From Escherichia coli (lineage in GTDB: Bacteria > Pseudomonadota > Gammaproteobacteria > Enterobacterales > Enterobacteriaceae), in assembly GCF_045037415.1 (NCBI RefSeq), contig NZ_CP173438.1: 64,000 bases of DNA. One strand, given 5' to 3'. Below the pieces are notes generated by a model. It searched no databases. It had not been told where the DNA came from and saw only the letters and a program-made list of their open reading frames with translations. Below, piece by piece: positions 55,982-60,732 of this stretch. The translations under genes were made by a program, and so were the position numbers. Numbering within the stretch: the first letter of the stretch is position 1; the number at the start of each line of letters is the position of its first letter.

Positions 55982-58657
55982 ATGGCTGTTACTAATGTCG
56001 CTGAACTTAACGCACTCGTAGAGCGTGTAAAAAAAGCCCAGCGTGAATATGCCAGTTTCACTCAAGAGCAAGTAGACAAAATCTTCCGCGCCGCCGCTCT
56101 GGCTGCTGCAGATGCTCGAATCCCACTCGCGAAAATGGCCGTTGCCGAATCCGGCATGGGTATCGTCGAAGATAAAGTGATCAAAAACCACTTTGCTTCT
56201 GAATATATCTACAACGCCTATAAAGATGAAAAAACCTGTGGTGTTCTGTCTGAAGACGACACTTTTGGTACCATTACTATCGCTGAACCCATCGGTATTA
56301 TTTGCGGCATCGTTCCGACCACTAACCCGACTTCAACTGCTATCTTCAAATCACTGATCAGCCTGAAGACCCGTAACGCCATTATCTTCTCCCCGCACCC
56401 GCGTGCAAAAGATGCAACCAACAAAGCGGCTGATATCGTTCTGCAGGCTGCTATCGCTGCCGGTGCTCCGAAAGATCTGATCGGCTGGATCGATCAACCT
56501 TCTGTTGAGCTGTCTAACGCACTGATGCACCACCCAGACATCAACCTGATCCTCGCGACTGGTGGTCCGGGCATGGTTAAAGCCGCATACAGCTCCGGTA
56601 AACCAGCTATCGGCGTAGGCGCGGGCAACACTCCAGTTGTTATCGATGAAACTGCTGATATCAAACGTGCAGTTGCATCTGTACTGATGTCCAAAACCTT
56701 CGACAACGGCGTAATCTGTGCTTCTGAACAGTCTGTTGTTGTTGTTGACTCTGTTTATGACGCAGTACGTGAACGTTTCGCAACCCACGGTGGCTATCTG
56801 TTGCAGGGTAAAGAGCTGAAAGCTGTTCAGGACGTTATCCTGAAAAACGGTGCGCTGAACGCGGCTATCGTTGGTCAGCCAGCCTATAAAATTGCTGAAC
56901 TGGCAGGCTTCTCTGTACCAGAAAACACCAAGATTCTGATCGGTGAAGTAACCGTTGTTGATGAAAGCGAACCGTTCGCACATGAAAAACTGTCCCCGAC
57001 TTTGGCAATGTACCGTGCTAAGGATTTCGAAGACGCGGTAGAAAAAGCAGAAAAACTGGTTGCTATGGGCGGTATCGGTCATACCTCTTGCCTGTACACT
57101 GACCAGGATAACCAACCGGCTCGCGTTTCTTACTTCGGTCAGAAAATGAAAACGGCTCGTATCCTGATTAACACCCCGGCTTCTCAGGGTGGTATCGGTG
57201 ACCTGTATAACTTCAAACTCGCACCTTCCCTGACTCTGGGTTGTGGTTCCTGGGGTGGTAACTCCATCTCTGAAAACGTTGGTCCGAAACACCTGATCAA
57301 CAAGAAAACCGTTGCTAAGCGAGCTGAAAACATGTTGTGGCACAAACTTCCGAAATCTATCTACTTCCGCCGTGGCTCCCTGCCAATCGCGCTGGATGAA
57401 GTGATTACTGATGGCCACAAACGTGCGCTCATCGTGACTGACCGCTTCCTGTTCAACAATGGCTATGCTGATCAGATCACTTCCGTATTGAAAGCAGCAG
57501 GCGTTGAAACTGAAGTCTTCTTCGAAGTAGAAGCTGACCCGACCCTGAGCATCGTTCGTAAAGGTGCAGAACTGGCAAACTCCTTCAAACCAGACGTGAT
57601 TATCGCGCTGGGTGGTGGTTCCCCGATGGACGCTGCGAAGATCATGTGGGTTATGTACGAACATCCGGAAACTCACTTCGAAGAACTGGCGCTGCGCTTT
57701 ATGGATATCCGTAAACGTATCTACAAGTTCCCGAAAATGGGTGTGAAAGCGAAAATGATCGCTGTCACCACCACTTCTGGTACAGGTTCTGAAGTCACTC
57801 CGTTTGCGGTTGTAACTGACGACACTACTGGTCAGAAATATCCGCTGGCAGACTATGCACTGACCCCGGATATGGCGATTGTCGACGCCAACCTTGTTAT
57901 GGACATGCCGAAGTCCCTGTGTGCTTTCGGTGGTCTGGACGCAGTAACTCACGCCATGGAAGCTTATGTTTCTGTACTGGCATCTGAGTTCTCTGATGGT
58001 CAGGCTCTGCAGGCACTGAAACTACTGAAAGAATATCTGCCAGCGTCCTACCACGAAGGGTCTAAAAATCCGGTAGCGCGTGAACGTGTTCACAGTGCAG
58101 CGACTATCGCGGGTATCGCGTTTGCGAACGCCTTCCTGGGTGTATGTCACTCAATGGCGCACAAACTGGGTTCCCAGTTCCATATTCCGCACGGTCTGGC
58201 AAACGCCCTGCTGATTTGTAACGTTATTCGCTACAACGCGAATGACAACCCGACCAAGCAGACTGCATTCAGCCAGTATGACCGTCCGCAGGCTCGCCGT
58301 CGTTATGCTGAAATTGCTGACCACCTGGGTCTGAGCGCACCGGGCGACCGTACTGCTGCTAAGATCGAGAAACTGCTGGCATGGCTGGAAACACTGAAAG
58401 CTGAACTGGGTATTCCGAAATCTATCCGTGAAGCTGGCGTTCAGGAAGCAGACTTCCTGGCGAACGTGGATAAACTGTCTGAAGATGCATTCGATGACCA
58501 GTGCACCGGCGCTAACCCGCGTTACCCGCTGATCTCCGAGCTGAAACAGATTCTGCTGGATACTTACTACGGTCGTGATTATGTAGAAGGCGAAACTGCA
58601 GCGAAGAAAGAAGCCGCTCCGGCTAAAGCTGAGAAAAAAGCGAAAAAATCCGCTTAA
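55982..58657 (+). CDS. adhE: Bifunctional aldehyde/alcohol dehydrogenase AdhE
   Basis: 891 aa starting [26 protein letters not shown]. Confidence 0.95.
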
Positions 58658-58697
58658 TCAGTAGCGCTGTCTGGCAACATAACGGCCCCTTCTGGGG

Positions 58698-59842
58698 TAA
58701 TGCCAGTCAGTTAAGGATCAGTTGACCGATCCAGTGGCTGTGTAAGAATCCGGAAACGCTCACTCGTTTCCGGATTTTTTTATGCTCATTGGACAGGCCC
58801 TTGATTTGGTATCCCGTTACGATTCTCTGCGTAACCCACTGACTTCTCTGGGGGATTACCTCGACCCCGAACTCATCTCTCGTTGCCTTGCCGAATCAGG
58901 TACTGTAACGCTACGCAAGCGCCGTCTTCCCCTCGAAATGATGGTCTGGTGTATTGTTGGCATGGCGCTTGAGCGTAAAGAACCTCTTCACCAGATTGTG
59001 AATCGCCTGGATATCATGCTGCCGGGCAATCGCCCCTTCGTTGCCCCCAGTGCCGTTATTCAGACCCGCCAGCGTCTGGGAATTGAGGCTGTCCGCCGCG
59101 TGTTCACGAAAACAGCGCAGCTCTGGCATAACACCACGCCGCATCCGCACTGGTGCGGCCTGACCCTGCTGGCCATCGATGGTGTGTTCTGGCGCACACC
59201 GGATACACCAGAGAACGATGCAGCCTTCCCCCGCCAGACACATGCCGGGAACCCGGCGCTCTACCTGCAGGTCAAAATGGTCTGCCAGATGGAACTGACC
59301 AGCCATCTGCTGACGGCTGCAGCCTTCGGCACGATGAAGAACAGCGAAAATGAGCTTGCTGAGCAACTTATAGAACAAACCGGCGATAACACCCTGACGT
59401 TAATGGATAAAGGTTATTACTCACTGGGACTGTTAAATACCTGGAGCCTGGCGGGAGAACACCGCCACTGGATGATCCCTCTCAGAAAGGGAGCGCAATA
59501 TGAAGAGATCAGAAAACTGGGTAAAGGCGATCATCTGGTGAAGCTGAACACCAGCCCGCAGGCACGAAAAAAGTGGCCGGGACTGGGAAATGAGGTGACA
59601 GTCCGCCTGCTGACCGTGACGCGCAAAGGAAAAGTCTGCCATCTGCTGACGTCGATGACGGACGCCATGCGCTTCCCCGGGACGTATACCGGAGCTGATG
59701 CGCGATCTTGCAAGTATGGGACAACTAGTGAAATTACCGACAAGAAGAGAAAGGGCCTTCCCGAGAGTGATAAAGGAGAGGCCCTGGAAATACTCCACAG
59801 CCCCGAAAAAGAGCCAGTCAGTTGCTTAACTGACTGGCATTA
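58698..59842. mobile_element. IS4-family element with internal deletion, 17-bp terminal inverted repeats, flanked by 12-bp target-site duplication
   Basis: IR-L TAATGCCAGTCAGTTAA (58698-58714), IR-R TTAACTGACTGGCATTA (59826-59842); CCCCTTCTGGGG at 58686-58697 and 59843-59854. Confidence 0.8.
58782..59828 (+). pseudogene. insZ: IS4 transposase pseudogene (insZ-like); frame broken by an internal deletion near 59690
   Basis: N-terminal ~300 aa match IS4 transposase; C-terminal [33 protein letters not shown]...SQSVA is present only in another frame. Confidence 0.8.
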
Positions 59843-60114
59843 CCCCTTCTGGGGCCGTTTTTTATTTTCCCAAAGCAACTTTTCCATAAACCGGCAGCAT
59901 TGTCCTTCATCATATTTGCGACGATGTATAACGCCTACACACAGCGATATTGTACTTTACAGGTTACAAGTCAATGTCGGTGTATAAGCGCTCTGTGAGG
60001 CGTATAACGGCGTTAAAAAACTGCCGAGAAGGGTGTATAGCCCGGAAGAAGTGCGTAAAACGAACTGACAGGGATAAAAGCGCCCTGCTCACCCTGTCAG
60101 TAAAGAAATTCTTA

Positions 60115-60732
60115 TTAATCGTGGCGATGCCTTTCCTGAATAGCCGTTAATGAGCCGACTTCTAACGCCTCTTTATAGTGTTTACGGCATACAGAAACGT
60201 AGCGTTCATTACCACCAATAACCACCTGCTCACCTTCGTTATAAGGTCTGCCTGCTTGATCAAGACGCAGCACCATGCTTGCTTTACGGCCACAAAAACA
60301 GATGGTTTTTAATTCAACCAGTTTGTCGGACCATGCCAGTAAGTATTGACTGCCAATAAATAATTCACCTCGAAAATCGGTACGTAGACCATAACAAAGT
60401 ACGGGTATATCGAGTTGATCGACAACCTCCGATAATTCATATGCTTGTTGTCTGGTTAAAAACTGGCATTCATCAACCAGTACGCAATGAATTGCCTGCT
60501 GTTCATGTTCCGCACGAATCTCATCAAATAATGATGAATTTTGGTTAAATAATTTTGCAGGTGATGACAAACCTATACGCGAACTGACTTTCCCGGCACC
60601 AAAGCGATCATCAATTTCTGCCGTATATACGACAGTGCGCATGCCGCGTTCCTGGTAATTGTATGAAGATTGCAACAATGCTGTAGACTTACCCGCATTC
60701 ATTGCGGAATAGTAGAAATATAGCTGTGCCAT
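60115..60732 (-). CDS. tdk: Thymidine kinase
   Basis: 205 aa, [21 protein letters not shown]. Confidence 0.9.

Follow-up and report, generated by a model that had tools for sequence, protein, structure and literature searches.

IS4 of Escherichia coli K-12 (insG, 1426 bp) is the type element of the IS4 family of insertion sequences (ISs) and belongs to its IS4 subgroup. Members of this subgroup have ends of the form -AATR, in which the first base is relaxed, and generate direct repeats that are 10-13 bp long (PMC2266710, Table 1), and their target arms show a specificity that has been called 'spectacular' (PMC2266710). The catalytic glutamate of the family lies within a Y-(2)-R-(3)-E-(6)-K (YREK) motif in region C1 (PMC2266710). 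The IS4-family element ISRm22 (IS4Sa subgroup) inserts at the apex of repetitive extragenic palindromic (REP) sequences, and resembles IS4 in entering an extragenic palindrome at its symmetry axis and duplicating the top (PMC1525189). The K-12 chromosome also carries ISZ, which is annotated at NC_000913.3 1294426-1295405 as the pseudogene insZ (b4573) and lies between tdk and adhE. The stretch considered here, referred to below as the window, is 64,000 nucleotides (nt) of the E. coli contig NZ_CP173438.1, and it carries an IS4-family element in the terminator of adhE. This element is IS4 itself in an internally deleted form, very probably a fixed relic that is no longer autonomous. It is an ordinary element, already known and annotated as inactive, and a dead IS4 copy matters little alone, the pseudogene being annotated in over a thousand RefSeq genomes. 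The adhE locus, in turn, is a compact natural example of the preference of IS4 for terminator hairpins.

The element occupies positions 58698-59842 on the plus strand and is 1145 bp long. The first-pass annotation of the window had proposed this size and these boundaries, and both passed the test of alignment with intact IS4 (1426 bp). A megablast search of 5,426 complete E. coli genomes, the set on which all population counts below are based, gave a two-piece match to insG-annotated IS4 copies spanning 1426 bp. By blastn, window positions 58698-59680 correspond to nt 1-983 of K-12 IS4 (98.1% identity) and positions 59669-59842 to nt 1253-1426 (97.1% identity), and 24 substitutions separate the two copies. 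The two segments overlap by 12 bp because IS4 contains a 12-bp direct repeat, GCGCTTC(C/A)CCGG, which in the K-12 copy reads GCGCTTCCCCGG at nt 972-983 and GCGCTTCACCGG at nt 1253-1264. The window element is made up of nt 1-983 joined to nt 1265-1426, and the 281 bp absent from it (nt 984-1264) comprise one copy of the repeat and the 269 bp between the copies. Comparison with K-12 IS4 and with a related intact lineage places the deletion junction at 59669-59680 on the plus strand, where the sole surviving repeat copy reads GCGCTTCCCCGG.

The element is flanked by a perfect 12-bp target duplication, CCCCTTCTGGGG, at 58686-58697 and 59843-59854, as had been claimed. Empty-site alleles show that the left copy originally formed the top of the hairpin in the adhE terminator. 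This sequence has just two occurrences in the window and no match of any kind in 100 shuffled controls, and its length falls within the 10-13 bp range of the IS4 subgroup. The K-12 copy of IS4 has a 12-bp duplication of its own, CAGAACCAAGAT, which sets the ends of IS4 at TAATGCC…GGCATTA. Terminal inverted repeats had been recognized correctly by the first-pass annotation but measured as 17 bp; they are 18 bp long and perfect. The left terminal inverted repeat (IRL), TAATGCCAGTCAGTTAAG, lies at 58698-58715 on the plus strand, and the right terminal inverted repeat (IRR), its complement, at 59825-59842 on the minus strand. An inverted-repeat search of the window that allowed up to three mismatches returned only these two terminal copies, with 0.04 expected. 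The IRR has the same sequence as that of K-12 IS4. The IRL departs from the canonical IS4 IRL (…GCCGATCAG…) at nt 8-9, where it has AG in place of GA, and by virtue of this change it matches the IRR perfectly in inverted form. The window element thus resembles IS4 of K-12 in its termini, the length of its duplication, the hairpins at both ends and its target signature, and differs from it in the AG at IRL nt 8-9, the absence of nt 984-1264 and the resulting loss of the YREK motif and shift of the reading frame.

A full-length IS4 has 1426 bp and an intact transposase of 442 amino acids (aa). With 1145 bp and a shifted frame, the window copy is a defective derivative and not a functional IS4, which upholds the earlier description of it as internally deleted. 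The part of the transposase that remains in frame, residues 1 to ~300 of InsG, is encoded at 58782-59680 on the plus strand, as judged from Pfam, tblastn and the open reading frame (ORF) list. It matches InsG 1-304 with 96.4% identity over 304 aa (tblastn) and contains PF13006 (Nterm_IS4, 6e-32) together with an incomplete PF01609 domain (DDE_Tnp_1, 2e-15) that covers only profile positions 3-130 of 200. The deletion puts the sequence beyond the junction out of frame, and the ORF that is open from 58782 leaves the element and reaches 59987, so its 401 aa include a tail that is out-of-frame read-through into flanking DNA. The C-terminal ~50 residues of the transposase are kept in another frame, as tblastn in frame +2 matches InsG 391-442 (96%); the ORF list places an out-of-frame remnant of 43 residues (InsG 400-442) at 59698-59829 on the plus strand. 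The YREK motif corresponds to InsG 307-321 and lies within the deleted residues ~300-393. Since the motif and its catalytic glutamate are gone, the transposase, judged by its sequence, cannot be active. RefSeq annotates the deleted copy as a frameshifted IS4-family pseudogene.

An IS4-type insert of any form is present in the adhE-tdk spacer of 1,133 genomes. The deletion junction is found by blastn in 1,043 of them (about a fifth of all genomes), which leaves by subtraction ~90 genomes with a full-length IS4 at this place. The junction is identical to that of the window in 568 genomes by megablast with a 40-mer, a search that undercounts since a single-nucleotide polymorphism (SNP) in the 40-mer leaves no 28-base word. 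ISZ is present in ~1,990 genomes, a count which assumes that its single place per genome is the adhE-tdk locus and which was confirmed only in sampled rows, K-12 included. The remainder, ~2,300 genomes, have an empty spacer. Genomes with the deletion junction include O25b:H4-ST131, ATCC 25922, S88 and NC101. The deleted IS4 allele was met in well-known B2 strains, ISZ in K-12 and O111:H8, and the empty site in O157:H7. These three clean alleles of the spacer (empty, ISZ, and IS4 or deleted IS4) could serve as a lineage marker. Repeats are generally prone to misassembly, and the 281-bp deletion could on that ground be suspected of being an assembly or sequencing artefact. A junction that is identical in 568 complete genomes, and recovered in 1,043 when SNPs are admitted, by many laboratories on many platforms, allows this suspicion to be dismissed.

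The same survey bears on whether the 1145-bp form is itself mobile. Both of its terminal repeats are intact and perfect, and in some genomes intact IS4 copies occur alongside it (more than one place per record), so that it could behave like a MITE (miniature inverted-repeat transposable element), a non-autonomous element mobilized in trans by intact IS4. A MITE would be expected at multiple loci, with a separate duplication at each, but in the 1,043 genomes the junction is found at one place per genome, always between adhE and tdk, apart from chromosomal segments captured on plasmids. The one plasmid match that was inspected is such a captured block and holds no transposed copy. Mobilization in trans is accordingly hard to credit. 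The inspected plasmid, pNR3838_1 (NZ_AP040233.1, a 94.5-kb record), carries at 17991-23030 a block of adhE, deleted IS4, tdk, hns and galU, in which the element and its immediate flanks are identical to those of the window. The block may have been captured in the manner of an F-prime, or the contig may be mislabelled. The junction search gave four more plasmid matches beside this one.

The history of the deletion can be approached through strain 20Y000092 (NZ_CP138217.1), in which an intact IS4 of 1426 bp occupies this same adhE junction. This copy has 15 derived substitutions in common with the window element, the AG-form IRL included, and both of its 12-bp repeats are GCGCTTCCCCGG, save for a private G-to-A change at nt 972. 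An intact copy with these features indicates that the deletion arose in place, and slippage or recombination between the 12-bp repeats would explain the loss of 281 bp most simply. An IS4 of the variant lineage that has AG at IRL nt 8-9 very probably inserted where the adhE terminator hairpin has its apex, leaving the uppermost 12 bp in duplicate. The inserted copy later lost the 281 bp between its repeats, with the attendant frame shift and loss of residues ~300-393, and the dead copy was then passed down in E. coli lineages that include the well-known B2 strains. Two observations weigh against so simple a sequence of events. Other deleted lineages (NGF1 and Z0117EC0036), which differ from the window by 20-27 substitutions, have A and not C at IS4 nt 979 in the junction repeat, and a single ancient deletion followed by substitution fits this as well as recurrent deletion does, the two being indistinguishable. 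In addition, canonical GA-type IS4 is found at the same junction and could represent either separate insertions or the same insertion changed by recombination.

The loop of the terminator is inverted in the left copy of the duplication in some strains, where it reads CCCCAGAAGGGG (20Y000092) or CCCCATAAGGGG (Z0117EC0036), AGAA being TTCT in reverse complement; CCCCTTCTGGGG is retained in the right copy. The loop inversion and the AG-form IRL look like products of gene conversion or template switching between the inverted arms of ~35 nt that are formed by flank, duplication and terminal repeat.

The 401-aa ORF open from 58782 and the retention of the deleted allele in more than 1,000 genomes raise the possibility that the truncated protein, with its DNA-binding N-terminus and partial DDE domain, was kept as an inhibitor or regulator of transposition. 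Truncated transposases inhibit in other IS4-family elements, and the Inh protein of IS50 is the transposase-related inhibitor of Tn5. Comparison of the deleted lineages gives a different picture for the window element. Their substitutions in the remaining frame number 12 non-synonymous and 3 synonymous (80% non-synonymous, with 76% expected at random), and the copy in Z0117EC0036 has an extra 1-bp deletion at nt 153, from which the remnant ORF is taken to be a drifting pseudogene. Its tail is moreover out-of-frame read-through into the flanks, and most carriers show a single matching place per record and so lack an intact IS4 that could be regulated. A truncated 'Tn5 transposase-related inhibitor protein' is mentioned in the literature (PMC1525189), but a comparable role for the remnant at adhE is very unlikely. 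The deleted copy is instead decaying neutrally.

The first-pass annotation had also equated the element with insZ of K-12, and this identification did not survive comparison. Three features could suggest that the two are diverged alleles of one ancestral insertion, since ISZ and the window IS4 share the adhE hairpin and their orientation within it, both are annotated as 'IS4 family transposase' pseudogenes, and the left-terminal 35 bp (window 58698-58732) are identical at 33 positions. Each is an internally deleted element that fits the published features of the IS4 subgroup. The alignment of the two is nevertheless limited to the flanks and the outer ~35 bp on the left and 18 bp on the right, where 14 of 18 positions agree. 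The ~0.94-kb interior of ISZ gave no blastn match to the window element, and the ISZ transposase remnant has only 31-42% protein identity with InsG. ISZ starts with CAATGCCG… (read as CAATGCCGATCAG…, CAATGCC…) and ends with …CGGCATTG, so that its terminal base is C where that of IS4 is T. Its true length is 989 bp, the K-12 annotation falling 9 bp short at the right end, and its duplication is 10 bp long (CCCTTCTGGG), with both junctions 1 bp further inward than those of the window element. A difference between 10 and 12 bp with a symmetric 1-bp shift is not producible by divergence or by internal recombination. Finally, a relative of ISZ, 1427 bp long and 92% identical to it, lies in the ypjA-ssrA hairpin with its own 10-bp duplication, CACATCTGTG. 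That one ancestral insertion gave rise to both elements is thus scarcely conceivable. The distinct interiors, termini and duplication lengths, together with the full-length relative elsewhere, point to independent insertions, and ISZ and the window IS4 are judged to be distinct IS4-subgroup elements that entered one hairpin separately and are positional analogues, carried by different genomes. The name insZ should accordingly not go onto the element in ST131-type genomes. A literature search for insZ with adhE and IS4 returned nothing useful.

The close agreement of the left ends suggests either a very strong constraint on this end, through transposase binding and a TTGACC hexamer, or a past exchange of ends. 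A contig from a metagenome, OAUB01000482.1, has the sequence ACAGGGAGCCGTTTTCTT ~45 nt to the left of an IS4 end, which corresponds to the right arm and U-tract of an ISZ-type left hairpin; it is followed by a second hairpin that carries the IS4 insert. In this contig IS4 may be nested beside an ISZ-like element.

The adhE coding sequence (891 aa) occupies 55982-58657 on the plus strand according to the ORF list and the RefSeq annotation of strain SK1144, in which this region is identical, and 28 nt separate its stop codon from the left copy of the duplication. Genomes with an empty site have AAACGGCCCC-TTCT-GGGGCC-GTTTTTTT (T7) as their adhE terminator. The sequence in O157:H7, one of these genomes, is AAACGGCCCCTTCTGGGGCCGTTTTTTTG, and with its flanks the empty site reads AAACGG-CCCCTTCTGGGG-CCGTTTTTTT. 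The adhE-tdk spacer of such genomes is shorter by exactly 1157 bp, which is the sum of the element (1145 bp) and one copy of the duplication (12 bp), so that the proposed comparison with strains lacking the insertion gave the anticipated result. The insertion point is the apex of the hairpin of the adhE intrinsic terminator. Real empty-site alleles also agree with the GGCCCC-ttct-GGGGCC-T7 terminator that had been reconstructed from the window alone, although the run of T in the window lineage is T6-A-T4 and not T7. The right foot of the original stem (CCG) and this run (T6) are retained at 59855-59863 on the plus strand.

The flanks of the insertion in the window differ from those of most E. 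coli on both sides. On the right, positions 59855-59868 contain T6-A-T4 where most genomes have T7-G-T3, and on the left, positions 58676-58685 read ACATAACGG where most have ACATAAACGG. Since the insertion, this lineage has changed in both the A-tract and the T-tract that the target originally had.

The adhE site is one of many of its kind. Targets of IS4 were rebuilt from 80 metagenome contigs with a canonical IS4 left end and from further E. coli genomes besides that of the window, which together gave 47 distinct sites. An A-run of at least 4 in the left flank is present at 64% of these sites and at 9% of random window positions, and a left-flank stem of at least 4 bp that ends exactly at the junction at 43% and 2.4%, respectively. 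In the profile of the 47 sites, positions -21 to -16 hold an A-tract (87% A at -18), after which come a C-rich arm, the loop and a G-rich arm. A T-tract often lies behind the GC-rich stem-loop of IS4 targets, and the empty adhE site fits the A-tract, GC-rich palindrome and T-tract of this profile. Sites for which both flanks are known resemble intrinsic terminators, as illustrated by those behind ymcF (GGCTCC-CTCG-TGGAGCC-T6) and behind bamD (CGGCAGC-CTTGA-GCTGCCG-T7). An AAA-N20-TTT consensus belongs to the early IS4 literature; our literature search did not retrieve it. IS1397, ISKpn1 and IS621 target palindromes, as IS4 does, in their case REP sequences or bacterial interspersed mosaic elements (BIMEs). 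These three elements and ISRm22 differ from IS4 in that their targets are repeated REP families, whereas IS4 targets unique sites with an A-tract, a GC-rich hairpin and a T-tract, such as gene terminators.

The bamD terminator, CGGCAGC(C)CTTGAGCTGCCG-T7, has received IS4 in three E. coli genomes, with duplications of 13, 14 and 12 bp, and is a second recurrent landing site. One of the differences in duplication length tracks a 1-bp polymorphism in the loop, so that at least two independent events are certain.

A fixed orientation of IS4 relative to the terminated gene was considered and dropped, as IS4 lies in the adhE hairpin in the reverse orientation in two metagenome contigs (L066 and L071); the apparent uniformity was due to the oriented query. 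With these contigs, the adhE hairpin has been hit at least three independent times, by ISZ in the forward orientation and by IS4 in the forward and reverse orientations.

Insertion at the apex splits the native terminator. The hairpin of the empty site folds with -21.1 kcal/mol (z score -5.4). The left remnant has -9.5 kcal/mol (z -0.74), forming a weak 5-bp stem with G58684-G58685 and lacking a U-run, the right remnant has -7.5 kcal/mol (z -0.59), and both fold no better than shuffled sequence. The element itself carries a terminator-like hairpin near its left end (IS4 nt 47-84) at 58744-58781 on the plus strand, which equals the native adhE terminator in stability (-21.1 kcal/mol, z -6.0). 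Its stem of 15 bp (58744-58758 with 58765-58779) encloses a 6-nt loop, and its U7 tract (58775-58781) ends directly before the transposase ATG at 58782. It thus has both the stem-loop and the U-tract of an intrinsic terminator, and it is the first strong hairpin with a U-run 3' of adhE in the window; an IS-borne hairpin and T-run downstream of adhE had already been noticed in the first reading of the sequence. The plus-strand terminator scan missed the left-end hairpin, possibly because the scanner extends the stem into the U-run; direct folding shows the hairpin clearly. An Rfam search over 58300-60400 gave no match at E <= 1. At the right end, the IRR and an internal inverted copy of it form a hairpin at 59813-59838 on the minus strand (terminator scan; -18.7 kcal/mol, z -5.8) that is followed by UCUUUUU and is terminator-like for transcription from the tdk side. 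ISZ has an analogous hairpin and U-tract ahead of its transposase start, with the same dimensions and position, a different stem sequence and a following UUUCUUAUG (-22.3 kcal/mol, z -5.3). The left-hairpin architecture is structurally conserved between elements that have ~31% protein identity.

Protection from outside transcription is familiar in IS10 and IS50. The left end of IS200 carries a stem-loop that blocks incoming transcription (PMC4513863) and, like that of IS4, lies near the left end and upstream of the transposase start. By analogy, the end hairpins of IS4 would be expected to stop transcription arriving from outside, the difference from IS200, IS10 and IS50 being that this function is argued for IS4 from structure and from conservation in ISZ. 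At the window locus the native terminator survives as two weak pieces, and the left hairpin of IS4 with its U7 tract, at ~58781, is the most likely end point of adhE transcripts. If the hairpin does terminate, the adhE 3' untranslated region (UTR) of strains with the insertion would be about 90 nt longer. Transcription reading through from tdk would run into the inward-facing hairpin at the right end. The insertion would in effect have swapped one terminator for another and been nearly neutral.

A broader possibility, which we entertain without yet favouring it, is that IS4-subgroup elements are dedicated inserters into terminator apices and carry inward-facing terminators at both ends that replace the terminator they destroy, at nearly no cost. 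The left hairpin would also gate transposase expression, in that transcripts from outside would fold it and stop, and the element's own transcript would start inside its left arm and escape. A candidate start for this transcript is a weak promoter-like site at 58722-58749 on the plus strand (TTGACC-16 nt-AAGAAT, with an upstream TG), whose -10 hexamer overlaps the left arm and whose TTGACC lies in the 35 terminal bp common to IS4 and ISZ; escape from termination by this route is speculative. Against this broader possibility it must be said that such a promoter-like match is expected by chance alone (1 found, 1.1 expected), and that termination at the IS4 hairpin and a transcript start inside the left arm are both steps that we infer. 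If replacement of terminators does take place, it would explain at least three independent hits on the adhE terminator and the persistence there of two different dead elements in over half of all E. coli genomes. The more general point is that IS4-type elements land on terminator hairpins and seem to supply terminators of their own in replacement, which would explain repeated and tolerated insertions at the adhE hairpin.

On the far side of the element, the tdk coding sequence lies at 60115-60732 on the minus strand, convergent with adhE (ORF list and RefSeq annotation). Just past its stop codon, a perfect 10-bp inverted repeat (ACTGACAGGG … CCCTGTCAGT, with a spacing of 18 nt) occupies 60064-60101 on the minus strand. 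The repeat is followed on this strand by UCGUUUU, on which ground the hairpin is probably the terminator of tdk itself.

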